Of a stretch of 64,000 nucleotides of DNA, positions 41,276 through 48,672 are shown one piece after another. This DNA comes from Ostreococcus lucimarinus (taxonomy: Eukaryota). The notes below the pieces were generated by a model. That model was not told where the DNA came from. It made no database searches and saw nothing but the letters and a program-made list of their open reading frames with translations. The stretch lies in NCBI GenBank assembly GCA_000092065.1, contig CP000587.1. One strand, written 5' to 3'. Each line of letters starts with the position of its first letter. Position 1 is the first letter of the stretch. The position numbers and the translations under genes were made by a program.

Positions 41276-42010
41276 TCATTCGTCCATGCGCGGCGACGAG
41301 ACGAAAAAGCCGTCGCTGTCGAAGAGGCGCTCCATCGAGCTCGCGCGCGCGATGTTCAACGTTTCGGCGAAAGCCTCGTCGTCGTACCCTTTGGCGTCGA
41401 TCGTCATCCCCGTGAACGAGCCGTCGACGCCCGAGAGACTTTGTAAAAACTCCTTCGACGCGCTGTCGAGATGCGGACCCCTGGGCGTGCTGAGCGTCGA
41501 CGTCAACTCTTCGTTTCGCGCGCGCAACTCTTCGTACTCGGCGCGCAACGCCTCCACCTCCGCGGACAGCGCGTTCACCCTCGTCAACGTCTCCTCGCAC
41601 GTCTGCTCTAACTCCACCATTCTCCGCATCTTCTTCATCCTCGATTTGGCCGCCGACAACCGATTCGCCTGCATCCTCCTCTCTCTCTTCTCCTCCTCCG
41701 TCGTCGTCCCCCCGTTCGCCCCCCTCGGCTCCTCGAGCACCGTGCGCAGCGACGGCTCGTGCGCGTCCGCCTGCGAGTACGACCGCGCCCGCGCGTGATG
41801 CGCCGGCGCCCCGATCACCGTCGGCGGCAATCCCTGCCGCGCGCTCGTCTCGCGCCCCTTATCGCTCCCGCCTCGTCCCGCCTCGCGCGCCCACGCGCTC
41901 GTCTGCGCGCTCTCCAGGCTCTCGCTCAGCGACCGCTCGTGTCTCGGCGCCCCCCACTCGCGCTCGCCGTTCGCCTCCGCGCGCGGGCTCGCGAGCGGCG
42001 ATATCTCCGA
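41276..42010 (-). CDS. bZIP transcription factor
   Basis: Basic region and leucine zipper: ..EEKRERRMQANRLSAAKSRMKKMRRMVELEQTCEETLTRVNALSAEVEALRAEYEELRARNEEL... The probable start is MSEISPLASP (~42010). The upstream in-frame part of the track ORF is a (TNER)n / RTRE low-complexity run from a (CGTT)n repeat. Confidence 0.7.
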   Translation of the reverse strand, partial: SEISPLASPRAEANGEREWGAPRHERSLSESLESAQTSAWAREAGRGGSDKGRETSARQGLPPTVIGAPAHHARARSYSQADAHEPSLRTVLEEPRGANGGTTTEEEKRERRMQANRLSAAKSRMKKMRRMVELEQTCEETLTRVNALSAEVEALRAEYEELRARNEELTSTLSTPRGPHLDSASKEFLQSLSGVDGSFTGMTIDAKGYDDEAFAETLNIARASSMERLFDSDGFFVSSPRMDE

Positions 42011-42020
42011 CATCCCTCGC

Positions 42021-42090
42021 GTTCGTTCGCGCGTTCGTTCGCGCGTTCGTTCGTTCGTTCGTTCGTTCGTTCGTTCGTTCGTTCGCGCGT
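42021..42090. repeat. (CGTT)n / (CGTTCGCG)n simple repeat
   Basis: cgttcgttcgcgcgttcgttcgcgcgttcgttcgttcgttcgttcgttcg... read directly. All three minus-strand frames read through it in the track as RTNE / NERA / TNAR tracts. A related (CGTT/GGTT)n tract is at ~46910-46948. Confidence 0.85.
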
Positions 42091-42273
42091 TCGCGCCTCT
42101 CGACGAAACGCGCCCTCGATCCGCGCGACGCCCTCGATCGCGCCCTCGATCGCGCCCTCCCGCTTCCCGCTTCCCGCGCCGCGCGCGTCGTTCCGACGCG
42201 TCGAGACGCGCGCGCGCCGACCCAATCCATCCCACGCGCGCGCGCGTTCGAACGAATCCTCCGACGTACTCGG

Positions 42274-42531: not shown

Positions 42532-45500
42532 ATGTCGCGGTACATGGGGAACTTCGCGCGACCGGAGAACGCGATCAAGCGCGCGGTGCGCGCGACGCGA
42601 CGACGACGACGCGACGCGGGACGACGACCGACGGGGGACGGGAGAGGGTTTGGATTTGAGATTCGAGCGCGCGGCGACGACGGGAGGGGCGAAGCGAAAG
42701 GACGAGGGCGCGCGAAGACTGACGAGACGTCGCATCGATCGGACGCGCGGTGCAGGAGGAGCTGATCAACGTGGGACAGAAGCAGGCGGCGCTGCTGTCG
42801 CTGCACGAAATCGTCACCAGTCGGCGAAACAGGCAGTGGACCAAGGTTCTCGAGGAGGTCATGTTCAAGTACGTCGAGCTGTGCGTCGAGCTGAAGAAGG
42901 GCAGGCTGTGTAAGGATGGGTTGATGCAATATCGCAACACGTGCTTGCTGGTGAACGTGCAGTCGCTCGAGGAGGTGGTGAAGCGATTTTTGAAGCTCTC
43001 GACGGAACGCGCGGAGACGGCGCAGGCGGAGTTCGGCGCTACTCTCGACGCGGACGTCGATCTCGAGGCCGAGTTCACGCCAGAGTCGCTGTTGGCGAAG
43101 GCGTATCGACTCGACCACGAGAACGAGGCGACGGAAAAGGAAACGGTGACGCCGTGGTTCAAGTTTTTGTGGGAAACGTATCGCAACTTGCTCGACATCT
43201 TACGCAACAACAACAAGCTCGAGGGTTTGTACGCCATGGTCGTGAAGGACGTGTTCAAGTTTTGCCTCAAGCACAAGCGCACGACCGAATTCAGGCGCGC
43301 GTGCGACTTGATGCGAACGCACTTGAACAACATGGTCAAGTACAAGGATATGCGCGACAGACCGGATTTGAGCTTACCCGAGACGCAAAATCTCTACATG
43401 GAAGTGCGTTTCGAACAGCTGAAGGCGGCTACGACGCTTGAAATGTGGCAAGAAGCGTTCCGATCGATCGAAGACATTCACGGGTTGATGCTCTTGCTTC
43501 GCCGTTCGCCCAAGCCGCAGATGATGGCGTTGTACTTTGCCAAGTTGACGGAAATTTTCTGGATTGGTAAAAATTACCTCCACGCCGCGTACGCGTGGAT
43601 GAAGCTTTACAGCGTTAGTAAAACGTATAACCGCAGCTTGACCCCTGAAGACGAACGCGCGTTGGCTTCGGGTGTCGTGTTGGCGACGATGTGCATAACG
43701 CCGTACACTGAAAAGTCCGTCTTTGGCGACATGGACTCCGATCATCAATTCGATCGCGACTCTCGCATGGCAAGTTTGCTCGGTTACCACATCGATCGTA
43801 GTCGCAGCATCAGCGATGTGCTCTCGCGTGAATTGTTGGCGGCCGAGATCAAGCGCAGCGGTTTGTTGGCCAAGGTGGACGACGACGTCAAGCGTTTGTA
43901 CGCCCTCATGGAGCAAAGCTTTTCCCCGCTCGATCTGTGCAAGAAGGCTGACGTGTTGTTTAACGTGTTACAAGGCACGACAATTGAAGTCAGTGAAGCC
44001 TCGCCGGTTTCCTCTTTCGACTTCAACTCGTTCTTACCGAGACTGAGATCGCTCGGCATTATTCGCATGGTGCACCAGCAATCCAAGGTGTTCGAGACGA
44101 TGAAGATTGATTCTTTGAAATCCTCCGTGCCGTTCATGCCGTATCACGAAGTCGAGCGTATTCTCGTACAAGCGATTCGAAGTGATTACATTTCCGTTCG
44201 AATCGACCACGAGACTGGATCGATGAACTTTGTCGGCGATCGCCTCGAGACGGGTTTCGTCAAGACGCACCTCTCTCGCGCCGCTCGTCTTTTGCAAGAA
44301 GGCATGAGCAAGCTCGCGCCCAAGACACCCGCCGATGTCGGCGCTCGTGTACTCGGTGCCGAATTGCGCGCCGCCATCGAGGCCGAACACAAGCGTGCGC
44401 TGGCGCGCAAGGTGGTCATCGAGCGCCGCAAGGAGGAAGCCGAGCGCGCCGCCGCTGAGCAAGAAAAGGAGGAAGAGGCTAAGCGCGTCGCCGCGCAGCG
44501 CAAGCACGAAGAAAACGAGGCCAAGCGCCTCGAACAAGAAGCTCGTGCTCGCGAAGAGAAGAGAATTCGTGCGGAAATGGAGGAAAAAGAGAAACAAGAG
44601 GCTCTCGAGTTGCTCGCCGAGCAAGCCAAGCGCGCTGGCAAAAAGGCGCCGATTGTCCTCGAGGAGGGCGTCGTCCTCGACAAGCGAGCCATCATGCAAG
44701 ATGCTATTCAAGAACAAATCAAGGCGCGTCAAGAGCAAGAACGCAAATTGAACAGTCTCGCTAAACGCATGGATCACGTCGAACGTGCCAAGCGCGAAGA
44801 AAGTATCAGTCTCATCGAGAAGGCGTACAAGGAGCGATCGGTGGATGACGAAAAGTACCACGCCGAACAACAAGTCGCGATGGCTGCGAAACATCGCGCC
44901 AAGTGGGAGGCGGAGAGCGCAGAAAAGCAGCGTTTGATGCGTATGGAAGGTCCGCGTGCCGAGTTCGCGCGTGGTGTCATGATTCGTCGGGCCGAGCAAT
45001 TCGCCGCTCAAGAGGAGGAACGCGCGAGAAAGCTCGAGCAAATGAAGAAGCACAAGGAGGCTGAACGCTTGCTCCAAGCGAAAAAAGATTACATCAAGCG
45101 TCTCCAAGACATCGAGGCTGCGGTGAAGCACGAAAAGCGCGAAAAGGATCGCATCGCGCAAGCTGAAAGACGTCGTCAACAAGAAGAAGAGGAAGCTGCT
45201 AGAAGACAACGCGAACAACCGCCGGCACGCGGCGGCGACGATCGCTGGGGCGCGTTCGCTGGGAGCGCGTTCGGCGAGCGTCGTCGGGTCGACGAAGCCC
45301 CAGCGCGACCTCCGTCAGGTGGTAGCCGATGGGAACCGTCAAGAGGTGGTGATCGTTACGAGCCTCGTCGCGACGACGGCCGGGGCGGCGGATTCGGAGA
45401 TCGCGATCGCGCGCCGTCGAATAGATGGGAGCGAGGCGGCGGCGATCGCCCGCCGTCGAGAAGCGGCGATGACCGCCCGCCGTCGAGAAGTGGCGGTGCT

Positions 45501-45563
45501 GACGATGGGAAATATCGCCCGCCTCGACGCGACGATGCACCGTCTAGAGGAGGAGGTTGGTAG
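42532..45563 (+). CDS. EIF3A: Eukaryotic translation initiation factor 3 subunit A (PCI domain plus long charged helical tail and an RG/RD-rich C-terminus), two exons, ~42532..42585 and ~42756..45563
   Basis: Exon 1 is MSRYMGNFARPENAIKRA (the eIF3a N-terminus is M..YF.RPENALKRA), ending at a GTGCGC donor. A ~170-nt intron has a GAAGACTGACGAG branch and a GTGCAG acceptor. Exon 2 is EELINVGQKQAALLSLHEIVTSRRNRQWTKVLEEVMFKYVELCVELKKGRLCKDGLMQYRN..., colinear with eIF3a including the PCI region. Both parts are anchored to track ORFs 42532..42765 and 42750..45563. Confidence 0.9.
42586..42755 (+). other. eIF3a intron (GTGCGC...CAG)
   Basis: It shares GGGTTTGGAT..GAG..GCGCGG and ..GACTGACGA.. with the transketolase intron. 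Confidence 0.8.
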
Positions 45564-45644: not shown

Positions 45645-46301
45645 TCACGCTCGGCGCCGCGTCATGTGCACCGAATCTATATTAATGTTACGCGTCAGCG
45701 CTCGCGCGCGCAAAAATTTGAAAATATTCTCCAAGAGCGCTTCACAAACCTCGGCCGACGCCCCGGAGCCGGAGACGCCGAGATACGTAATCGAATACGT
45801 CGCGTCTCCGGTCTTTTCCACGTGCTTTTGAAGTCGCCCGATCCCCGACCCCGACGTGCACTTGTAATACGCTCTTGGATACTTCTGCCCACTCAAAAAC
45901 TTATTTCCGTACTTGCGCCATCGAAACCCATCGTCCAGCCGAGTCGGATCTTCGCTCGTTTTCACCTCGACGATGCGCGCGTCGCCGCGCGCCGTCGCCG
46001 TCGTCGCCGTCGCCGTCGTCATCTCGCGCCGCTTCCGCGACGATTTCGCCGTCGACCGCGCCTTCTTCACCCCCCCCTCCTCCGACGCGCGACTCAGCGG
46101 CGCCCTCACCCCCCTCCCACCCTCCCCGCGTCCCTCCGCGAACCCCACGCACAGCGCCTCGAGCGATCGCTCGAATTTCTCCAGCCGTCCCCCGAACGTC
46201 CCATTCGGATCGTCGTTCTGATCCCGCGCCTCCCAGAACCCGTCGTCGTCCAGCGCGCTCCACGTCGACGTCCCCTCGCGCGCCGCGCGCGTCGTCCCCA
46301 T
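45645..46301 (-). CDS. WRKY-like DNA-binding domain protein with a divergent domain that lacks the C2H2 zinc ligands
   Basis: ..DDGFRWRKYGNKFLSGQKYPRAYYKCTSGSGIGRLQKHVEKTGDATYSITYLGVSGSG... The WRKYGQK-type heptad (WRKYGNK) and PR.YYKCT are conserved. The second Cys and the HxH are replaced. The probable ATG is at ~46301 (MGTTRAAREG..). Confidence 0.55.
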   Translation of the reverse strand: MGTTRAAREGTSTWSALDDDGFWEARDQNDDPNGTFGGRLEKFERSLEALCVGFAEGRGEGGRGVRAPLSRASEEGGVKKARSTAKSSRKRREMTTATATTATARGDARIVEVKTSEDPTRLDDGFRWRKYGNKFLSGQKYPRAYYKCTSGSGIGRLQKHVEKTGDATYSITYLGVSGSGASAEVCEALLENIFKFLRARALTRNINIDSVHMTRRRA

Positions 46302-46487: not shown

Positions 46488-46519
<32 letters not shown>

Positions 46520-46520
46520 C
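46488..46520. repeat. (TCG)n trinucleotide microsatellite, ~11 units
   Basis: ctcgtcgtcgtcgtcgtcgtcgtcgtcgtcgtcc read directly. Confidence 0.9.
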
Positions 46521-46909: not shown

Positions 46910-47005
46910 GTCGTTCGTTCGTTGGTTCGTTCGTTCGTTGGTTCGTTGGTCGATTGATTGATTGATTGCTCGATCGCGCGCTCGATCGGTCGATCGGTCG
47001 GTCGC
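46910..47005. repeat. Composite simple-repeat block, (CGTT/GGTT)n then (GATTG)n then (GATCGGTC)n, in the WRKY/B56 divergent intergenic region
   Basis: tcgttcgttcgttggttcgttcgttcgttggttcgttggtcgattgattgattgattgctcgatcgcgcgctcgatcggtcgatcggtcggtcg read directly. It lies ~110 bp upstream of the B56 ATG. Confidence 0.85.
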
Positions 47006-47079: not shown

Positions 47080-48672
47080 ATGCTGCGAAACGTGAAGAAG
47101 CAGTTGAGCGGGCTCGGGCGAGGGAGCGGGAAGCGAGAGGGCGAGGACGGGGCGAACGATTCGGGAGGAGACGGGACGACGACGACGCGCGGTGGTCGAG
47201 GGGGATCGAGGTCGACGTCGCCGGCGAACGGGAAGTCGAGCGGGAGCGGGACGAACGACGCGGGCGTGTTTAATCGAATGGCGGGCGCGGCGGCGTCCGC
47301 CGCGGGCGGGTTTCGGGCGTTTAGTTCGCTCAGGGTTGGATCTAGGGAAGGGTCGAGGCACGGGCAAAACGGTCTACCGAGCATGGAGGTGTTGTACGAT
47401 AAGAATAAGCCGTTGTTTTTGTTCAGAGACGTACCCGTGAACGAACGAGCGGCGTTGTTTGGGAAAAAGTTACAGCTGTGTTCGTATTGTTTCGATTTCA
47501 CCGATCCCGCGATCGACGCGAGGGAGAAGGAAATCAAGCGTCAGACGTTGATCGAGATCGTGGACTACGTCAATCAAGGCACGGGGCGGTTCACGGAGCA
47601 AGTGCTGGAACACATCAACTTCATGCTGGCGCAGAATTTGTTCCGCACGTTGCCGCCGACGAGCTCGGAGCAGACGGGACTGGTGAACGCGGCGATGTTC
47701 GACCCAGAAGAAGAAGAGCCGAGCCTCGAGCCGTCTTGGCCGCACTTGCAAATCGTGTACGAATTCTTGTTGCGTTACGTCGTTTCCAACGACATTGACA
47801 TTAAAAACGGGAAGACGTACATCGATCAATCCTTCGTGCTCAGGCTTTTAGAGTTGTTTGACAGCGAAGACCCGCGGGAGCGCGATTACTTGAAGACGAT
47901 TTTGCACAGAATTTACGGGAAATTCATGATCCATCGGCCGTTCATCCGTCAGGCGATCAATAATATCTTCTTCCGCTTCATTTATGAGACGGAGAAACAC
48001 AACGGAATCGCGGAGTTGCTCGAAATTTTGGGATCAATCATCAACGGGTTCGCGCTGCCGCTCAAGGACGAACACAAAACGTTCTTAAAGCGCGCTTTGT
48101 TGCCGTTACACAAGCCGAAGTGCGTCGGAATGTATCACTCGCAACTCGTTTACTGCGTGACCCAATTCGTCGAAAAGGATCCGCGCATGGCCGACGTCGT
48201 CATTCGCGGTTTGCTCAAGTACTGGCCCGTTACGAATTCCCAGAAAGAAGTGCTCATCTTGGGAGAGTTGGAAGAGGTGTTAGAGCTCACGCAAAGCGCG
48301 CAGTTTGCCAACGTCATGGTGCCGCTGTTCAAACAAATATCCTTCTGCATCAACTCCACGCACTTCCAAGTCGCCGAAAGAGCGCTGTTTTTGTGGAACA
48401 ACGACTACATTGTCAACCTGGTGGCGCAACATCGCCACGCGTTGCTTCCCGTCTGCTTCGGTGCGCTCGAAAAGAACGCCGTCGGACATTGGAACCCAGT
48501 CGTGGGCGGATTAACCATAAACGTCCGCAAGATGCTTCAAGAGATGGACCCCGAGCTCTTCGCGCAGTGTCGCGAGCGTTGGTTGGCGGATCAAGAGCGT
48601 CTCGCTGAGGACGAAAAAGCTCGCCAAGCGCGCTGGTCTCGCGTCGAAAGACTCGCCGGCGCTTCTGCATGA
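47080..48672 (+). CDS. PP2A-B56: Protein phosphatase 2A regulatory subunit B' (B56 family)
   Basis: ..[30 protein letters not shown].. then ..[10 protein letters not shown]..., ..[105 protein letters not shown].. are the B56 core. The ATG at ~47080 (MLRNVKKQ) follows a G/S/R-rich region. Confidence 0.9.

Follow-up and report, generated by a model that had tools for sequence, protein, structure and literature searches.

Can a WRKY domain persist as a DNA-reading module after most of its zinc site has been lost? The question is raised by a gene in the stretch of Ostreococcus lucimarinus DNA analysed here (64,000 nucleotides of contig CP000587.1, assembly GCA_000092065.1; hereafter the window), which encodes a WRKY-like protein of 236 amino acids (aa) between the genes for eIF3a and a PP2A B56 subunit. 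A first-pass annotation, made from the letters of the window, had recognised a WRKY-like domain with three of its four zinc ligands missing and had left three explanations side by side: a non-zinc WRKY variant, a degenerating pseudo-domain, or an ancestral WRKY/GCM1-like form. The first of these is supported here by ligand loss across lineages in an intact and conserved family. We favour, with moderate confidence, the view that the gene encodes a WRKY transcription factor which derives from the Group I C-terminal type, does without zinc and owes its stability to an added helix and strand at the C-terminus; the fold is a model prediction, and its independence of zinc, its binding to DNA and its target motif are what we infer. 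The orthologues, the conserved C-terminal extension and an existing annotation in Ostreococcus tauri go beyond the first-pass annotation.

PF03106 (WRKY) is the sole Pfam family in the protein (E 3.4e-14; 53.2 bits against a gathering cutoff of 21) and matches aa 141-193 with profile positions 1-54 of 59. The WRKY identity proposed from the letters is thereby borne out, and the core quoted for it, FRWRKYGNKFLSGQKYPRAYYKCTSGSGIGRLQKHVEKTGDATYSITYLGVSGSG, is present exactly as given. The closest solved structure is the C-terminal domain of AtWRKY4 (1WJ2/2LEX, E 2.3e-13), followed by WRKY33-C (8K31) and WRKY1-C (2AYD), with WRKY2-C (6J4F) also listed; all are Group I C-terminal domains. The heptad WRKYGNK conforms to the WRKYGQK type of heptapeptide and is accompanied by PRAYYKC, and the predicted fold possesses the four- to five-stranded antiparallel beta-sheet expected of a WRKY domain. 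The N of the heptad is fixed in all orthologues at the level of Ostreococcus, whereas Q is retained in the Bathycoccus-like relatives described below.

With AtWRKY4-C, AtWRKY1-C and WRKY33-C the window protein has in common the beta-N strand, DDG[FY]RWRKYG-K, PR-YYKC and KHVE. Its beta-N strand, RIVEVKT, aligns with RIIVQTT of a canonical C-terminal domain, and likewise with AtWRKY4-C and WRKY33-C. Identity to these Group I domains is 40-46% over the structurally aligned domain, and the predicted sheet superposes on theirs at 2.6-2.9 A. The differences are the missing Cys2 and His-x-His, a 2-residue insertion in the Cys loop, the exchange of Q for N in the heptad and the added conserved C-terminal helix and strand; furthermore, the protein possesses one WRKY domain, not the two of Group I.

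From the canonical zinc ligand set C-X4-5-C-X22-23-H-X-H (or H-X-C) the protein retains C166 only. The alignment places G171 in the column of Cys2, in agreement with the replacement of the second Cys reported before, and equates canonical K-H-N-H with V-S-G-S, the first His corresponding to S195 and the second to S197. The earlier reading of HNH as replaced by VSG was thus right in that three of the four ligands are gone, and off by one residue in what replaces them. Across the lineage alignments no orthologue possesses His-x-His or His-x-Cys at the corresponding positions. No substitute ligand conserved across the lineages was found in its stead; stray Cys residues occur at differing sites in each lineage. 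The O. tauri lineage alone (L004/L005 6001-6720, P0008/P0046) carries two extra Cys near the old zinc site, in KCTSGCGKG and YYGRSPGC. With three Cys near the old pocket, that lineage could have residual or re-evolved metal binding.

Homology searches and a metagenome scan yield diverged relatives of 231-368 aa or more, which sit between B56 and eIF3a wherever the contig is long enough. The order B56, WRKY-like gene, eIF3a is found in L002, L004-L007, L010, L013, L017 and L019-L020, and shorter contigs (L011, L014-L016, L018, L021-L022) contain the WRKY-like gene beside eIF3a only. The wider block of transketolase, B56, WRKY-like gene, eIF3a, bZIP, RRM protein and DRG GTPase is kept as well. 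At least six lineages at the level of Ostreococcus are represented: the window type, L012/L015, the O. tauri type L004, L002/L017, L006/L016 and L019-L022. A further type, P0009, comes from short contigs only, on which the flanks are not visible. The labels "Ostreococcus-level" and "Bathycoccus-like" are assigned from flank identity and guanine-cytosine (GC) content only. Flanking proteins are 76-86% identical to those of the window, against 38-57% for the aligned part of the WRKY-like protein. An exhaustive profile search of 1.84 billion representatives returned six full-length family clusters only; the other matches listed are mostly canonical multi-domain plant WRKYs and cover mainly the WRKY-domain part (about 120-200), a few reaching to 220 and none extending to the C-terminal strand.

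The positional orthologue in O. tauri, in the same B56-eIF3a synteny, is XP_003080527.2 (also CEF98869.1, UniRef A0A090M9V7, and OUS47216.1). It resembles the window protein in its N-terminal motif, WRKYGNK heptad, missing His-x-His and C-terminal helix and strand, at about 40-46% identity over the full length and 50% over the C-terminal half, and differs in its two extra Cys (CTSGC, SPGC), which the window protein lacks.

Ratios of non-synonymous to synonymous substitution rates (dN/dS; Nei-Gojobori) are 0.11-0.23 in the WRKY core, with 0.12 in a close pair of dS 0.13. They amount to 0.24-0.86 in the C-terminal segment (aa 196-236), being 0.24-0.5 in most pairs, and to 0.5-0.9 in the N-terminal region. 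Invariant across the family are W146, R147, K148, Y149, G150, K152, K165 and K177, and also D142, G143, P160, R161, Y163 and Y164. H178 is invariant in alignments A2 and A3, but is Q in the lineage L019-L022. The WRKY core is under purifying selection, and the gene is a conserved one and not a decaying copy.

Members at the level of Ostreococcus have five elements in common: the FExS..ALCxG helix, the basic linker, the beta-N strand, the WRKY sheet, and the C-terminal helix with its strand (Table 1). AlphaFold, run on the family alignment, predicts aa 127-233 as one confident domain, with a predicted local distance difference test score (pLDDT) of about 79-94 per ten-residue block. The modelled domain consists of five strands, a helix and a sixth strand, and the O. 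tauri-type protein is predicted with the same topology; in both orthologues the C-terminal helix and strand belong to a single confident domain with the WRKY sheet (pLDDT about 90). The C-terminal helix spans 198-220 in the window protein (pLDDT about 79-93) and 204-222 in the O. tauri-type model, with L207 and L208 conserved; the strand that follows it lies at 226-233 in the window protein, with S228, V229 and M231 nearly invariant, and at 229-236 in the O. tauri-type model. The N-terminal helix is modelled at 55-68 with pLDDT 51-54 in the window protein and at 52-89 with pLDDT 63-80 in the O. tauri type; alignment A2 shows next to no variation at F61, E62 and C69. R107 and R109 of the basic linker are likewise nearly invariant, and this stretch may act as a nuclear localisation signal (NLS).

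Loss of the ligands extends beyond these members. The Bathycoccus-like relative P0013 lies on contigs with a GC content of 0.49-0.51, 2.4 kb from B56, and a search seeded with it recovers the zinc-less relatives P0386, P0387, P0390 and P0391. These four possess WRKYGQK and KCTS, lack Cys2 and His-x-His, and carry a helix with a short hydrophobic tail. Since the Bathycoccus-like relatives are zinc-less too, the loss of the ligands is old within these picoalgae. P0390 (L093 708-1145, GC 0.60) and P0391 have a short helix-strand tail, e.g. TYLADEEEANEIYARLSEIRGIAVQRMSA, and lie outside the B56-eIF3a synteny. A downstream exon after GGTGAG at the Bathycoccus-like stop codon was considered and rejected, the conserved stretch there being part of a glycosyltransferase gene that lies next to it on the opposite strand. 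Positions 6169-6261 of L008 (also in L009) are in frame and free of stop codons, and the automatic calls P0013 and P0073 therefore translate straight through.

Canonical C..C..HxH WRKYs do occur on other marine picoalgal-like contigs, outside the B56-eIF3a synteny. Micromonas-like contigs with a GC content of 0.65-0.71 (L035, L055, L058, L060, L062-L065) encode a compact WRKY of canonical type whose spacer is shortened, YYRCTAPNCPARKHVEGDPKDPGSIAYEGxHNHE; its zinc site is intact and its gene does not lie beside B56 or eIF3a.

Because the domain resembles Group I C-terminal domains, because the family is confined to few Mamiellales-type lineages and because canonical WRKYs exist on picoalgal-like contigs, the zinc-less state is most simply read as derived. 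The protein would be a single-domain, nuclear member of the WRKY family, descended from the Group I C-terminal type. Its DNA-reading half, i.e. the beta-N strand, DDGFRWRKYGNK, PRAYYKC and QKHVE, is intact, and of the Cys2-His2 zinc site, now dismantled, the first Cys alone is left. In canonical domains the WRKYGxK strand is the DNA-reading element according to the AtWRKY4-C/DNA structures, as cited in PMC3634440 and PMC4350883. The WRKYGNK strand of the window protein probably inserts similarly into the major groove at a site resembling the W box (TTGACC/T), and its conservation suggests that the protein still acts as a sequence-specific DNA-binding transcription factor. The C-terminal helix and strand, absent from canonical WRKYs, are modelled as joining the WRKY sheet in a compact alpha/beta domain, where they probably take over the stabilising part of zinc. 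Such stability without zinc would resemble that of the NAC domain, which is zinc-free and whose sheet is topologically related to those of WRKY and GCM (PMC3634440). The N-terminal helix FExS..ALCxG may offer a partner or dimerisation surface.

Several points weigh against this reading. The protein as a whole changes quickly: its identity is 38-57%, where its neighbours keep about 80%. Zinc-finger folds are predicted by AlphaFold without the metal being modelled. The two models are not independent, because most of the shallow alignment (9-10 sequences) is common to both. The extra Cys of O. tauri (CTSGC, SPGC) make residual metal binding possible in that lineage only. Finally, chelation of zinc abolishes W-box binding in canonical WRKY domains (PMC4350883), so that retained DNA binding is not a given.

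The same effect of zinc loss on canonical domains is the starting point of another explanation, to which we give a minor yet appreciable share of the probability: a module of WRKY descent that has given up DNA binding and serves as a protein-interaction surface or regulator, e.g. as a partner or antagonist of the canonical WRKYs of the cell. The exchange of Q for N in the heptad is rare in land-plant surveys, the conserved N- and C-terminal motifs are possible interaction surfaces, and SIB1 is known to dock on the beta-N region of WRKY33 (PMC11088704). Yet conservation is strongest on the DNA-contacting strand and in the basic residues, which is hard to explain without DNA contact, and the basic, NLS-like linker is conserved as well. 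Improbable, in our judgement, is that metal is still bound through non-canonical ligands, namely C166 with H178 and C69 or an acidic residue, or with the extra Cys of O. tauri. C166 is invariant despite the loss of its three partners, C69 nearly so, H178 invariant in A2 and A3, and CTSGC and SPGC of the O. tauri type lie near the old site. However, H178 gives way to Q in L019-L022 and is also common in canonical KHVER, where the His is, to our knowledge, not a zinc ligand; the ALC motif is not seen in the more distant zinc-less relatives P0013, P0390 and P0391; the extra Cys of one lineage are not kept in another; and AlphaFold does not dock the N-terminal helix on the domain (pLDDT about 50 in the window model).

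Decay, origin before zinc, and error in the data each account for less. A degenerating pseudogene or pseudo-domain is very unlikely: although three of the four ligands are missing, overall divergence is fast, N-terminal dN/dS reaches 0.5-0.9 and the gene seems to be unannotated among the RefSeq proteins of O. lucimarinus CCE9901, the open reading frame (ORF) is intact and syntenic in each of the at least six diverged lineages, position, length and both terminal motifs are conserved, and the WRKY core has a dN/dS of about 0.1-0.2. Just as slight is the chance of an ancestral, pre-zinc WRKY/GCM1-like form. Ostreococcus belongs to an early-branching green lineage, and zinc-free relatives of the fold exist, e.g. 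NAC (PMC3634440). The domain is nevertheless closest to Group I C-terminal domains, beta-N strand included, the family is limited to a handful of Mamiellales-type lineages, canonical C..C..HxH WRKYs are found on picoalgal-like marine contigs and across Viridiplantae, and Babu et al. class WRKY and GCM1 with the domains that chelate metal, and FLYWCH with the Zn-fingers (PMC1702500).

That the missing Cys and His-x-His are concealed by a frameshift introduced in sequencing, or by an intron or exon that was overlooked, is a negligible prospect, even though the sequence is GC-rich and the N-terminal G-run is frameshifted in contigs L001 and L010. Independent assemblies give the same reading of the domain, with L011, L013 and L014 in the same frame throughout it (tblastn, 93-100% identity), and all orthologues agree. 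From the last strand as far as the convergent eIF3a gene, which has its stop codon 81 bp from that of the WRKY-like gene, none of the three minus-strand frames contains His-x-His or His-x-Cys; the sole motif, HRQH at 45507, lies inside the eIF3a coding region and was rejected. Since the assemblies agree and no frame supplies His-x-His, a frameshift in the window or a hidden intron is excluded for the domain region, which upholds the failure of the first-pass annotation to find such an intron and disposes of the frameshift in this GC-rich stretch that it had named as a possible refutation. The frameshifted long-read metagenome contigs are L001 (2600-3340, ERZ10646569) and L010 (2600-3600, ERZ10646601); their errors lie in the G-rich N-terminal part, and the public gene calls P0003, P0005 and P0007 are therefore chimeric or truncated.

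Among known systems, "Group IV" denotes an incomplete WRKY domain in the classification of Xie et al. 2005, as relayed by PMC4991837. With a WRKY signature and an incomplete zinc finger the window protein belongs there by definition, Group IV being a descriptive class and not a clade. In land plants Group IV is a catch-all of scattered members from various groups that have lost part of the domain, whereas the window family keeps the whole length of the domain, its ligand loss is fixed in syntenic orthologues under purifying selection, and a module has been added. The NAC domain (e.g. ORE1/ANAC092, 7XLJ) shows no sequence relationship, as Pfam NAM has no match in the 236 aa; the structural score to NAC is weak, comparable to that of generic alpha/beta sandwiches, and the protein is not a NAC member. 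GCM1, FLYWCH and MULE WRKY-GCM1 have no Pfam match in the protein either, and their ligands are absent from it. The VQ protein SIB1 docks on the beta-N strand and loop of WRKY33-C (PMC11088704), a possible intermolecular analogue of the predicted intramolecular C-terminal strand. The C-terminal strand itself was rejected as a VQ motif: it departs from the consensus FxxhVQxhTG, and VQ occurs in the O. tauri tail only. The C-terminal tails read IDSVHMTRR, IDSVEMxxR, VDSVQMTRR and IGSILSTRR, with no conserved VQ..TG.

The gene and its WRKY label are already known from O. tauri, in which the counterpart is annotated as "DNA-binding WRKY" (XP_003080527.2, 239 aa) and as "WRKY1" (OUS47216.1). Brand et al. 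2013 used the O. tauri protein as a WRKY DNA-binding domain in a phylogeny (PMC3834811), and Babu et al. 2006 count three "classical WRKY" proteins in O. tauri (PMC1702500), of which this is probably one. No paper among the open literature searched mentions the missing ligands or the C-terminal extension of XP_003080527. The selected, family-wide loss of three ligands, the conserved helix-strand extension, the occurrence of the zinc-less type in further lineages, Bathycoccus-like ones among them, and the annotation gap in O. lucimarinus appear to be new observations.

This gap concerns a gene whose ORF recurs in the independent assemblies L011, L013 and L014 and whose exact protein belongs to a 55-member cluster of the public protein collection; no O. 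lucimarinus-named protein in that collection matches the ORF. The 90%-identity clusters of eIF3a and B56 hold XP_001418782.1 and XP_001418783.1, respectively, of O. lucimarinus CCE9901 RefSeq. As these accessions are consecutive and the protein lacks an O. lucimarinus-named entry, the WRKY-like gene appears to be unannotated in the CCE9901 RefSeq protein set. The extent of 45645-46301 first given to the gene starts at the second Met, M19, which is an in-frame start; the ORF itself runs to 46355 (Table 1).

Table 1. Features of the WRKY-like gene and its flanking genes, with positions counted from the first letter of the window
Feature	Residues (aa)	Position	Strand	Basis
Coding sequence of the WRKY-like protein, single exon, complete	236 aa	45645..46355	-	ORF list and translation
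Stop codon of the WRKY-like coding sequence		45645-45647	-	
Alternative start, second in-frame Met	M19	46301	-	
N-terminal helix motif GGRLEKFERSLEALCVGF, family pattern FExS..ALCxG	55-72	46140..46193	-	alignment A2 and AlphaFold
Basic stretch KKARSTAKSSRKRRE, candidate NLS in disordered linker	97-111	46023..46067	-	sequence; pLDDT <50
Beta-N strand RIVEVKT	127-133	45957..45977	-	AlphaFold strand 127-133
WRKY domain (Pfam), with strands 146-152, 161-166, 175-181 and 187-193	141-193	45777..45935	-	
WRKYGNK heptad, Q-to-N variant of the DNA-contacting strand	146-152	45900..45920	-	
Sole canonical zinc ligand kept, invariant in the family (alignments A1, A2, A3)	C166	45858..45860	-	
Residue aligned with canonical Cys2, in the loop SGSGIGRL, 2 residues longer than canonical	G171	45843..45845	-	MAFFT
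Residues aligned with canonical His-x-His	S195-G196-S197	45765..45773	-	alignment with canonical domains
C-terminal amphipathic helix GASAEVCEALLENIFKFLRARAL, family pattern LLxxLxxxLxxR	198-220	45696..45764	-	AlphaFold
C-terminal strand IDSVHMTR, family pattern IDSVxM	226-233	45657..45680	-	DSSP on model
eIF3a gene		42750..45563	+	
PP2A B56 subunit gene		47080..48672	+	

The WRKY-like gene is part of a housekeeping block of ISWI, sulfate permease, DRG, RRM, bZIP, eIF3a, WRKY-like and B56 genes. The bZIP gene lies two genes away at 41276-42235 on the minus strand (Pfam bZIP_1, E 1.5e-8), and the O. tauri-type locus has a corresponding bZIP, so that the block contains two transcription-factor genes in at least these two lineages. 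The divergent intergenic region between the WRKY-like gene and B56 comprises 724 bp and contains simple repeats: a (GTC)n run at 46488-46520, about 130 bp upstream of where translation of the WRKY-like gene starts, and tandem units of TCGTT/GGTTCGTT and GATT at 46910-46975, toward B56. The C-terminal tail of eIF3a (45230-45560) is of low complexity and rich in Arg, Gly and Asp, with the near-repeats GDRPPSRSG and DDRPPSRSGG. No WRKY signature other than that of the gene studied here occurs in the 64 kb of the window. The first-pass annotation was correct in calling the sole copy non-canonical; its judgement that this is notable carries little weight, because, according to published surveys, Ostreococcus genomes contain other WRKY genes besides (PMC3834811, PMC5112548, PMC1702500).

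Coordinated zinc is regarded as essential to WRKY domains and as part of their definition. Green-algal WRKY surveys count this gene as a "classical" WRKY, and the O. lucimarinus reference set seemingly misses it. We offer, tentatively and with less confidence than the zinc-independent factor favoured above, that Ostreococcus, the Bathycoccus-like types and their relatives possess a naturally metal-free WRKY, in which a helix-strand clamp has replaced the zinc knuckle and sequence-specific DNA binding has been kept. Such a metal-free state might conceivably be linked to the zinc-poor water of the surface ocean. A metal-free WRKY domain, if true, would mean that evolution had run an experiment parallel to that of the zinc-free NAC domain; the family would show a route by which a zinc-ribbon-like DNA-binding fold reaches metal independence, and would provide a concrete intermediate for the origin of zinc-free relatives such as NAC. 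It would also offer a small and tractable protein, of about 110 residues, for the part that zinc plays in the stability and DNA recognition of WRKY domains.

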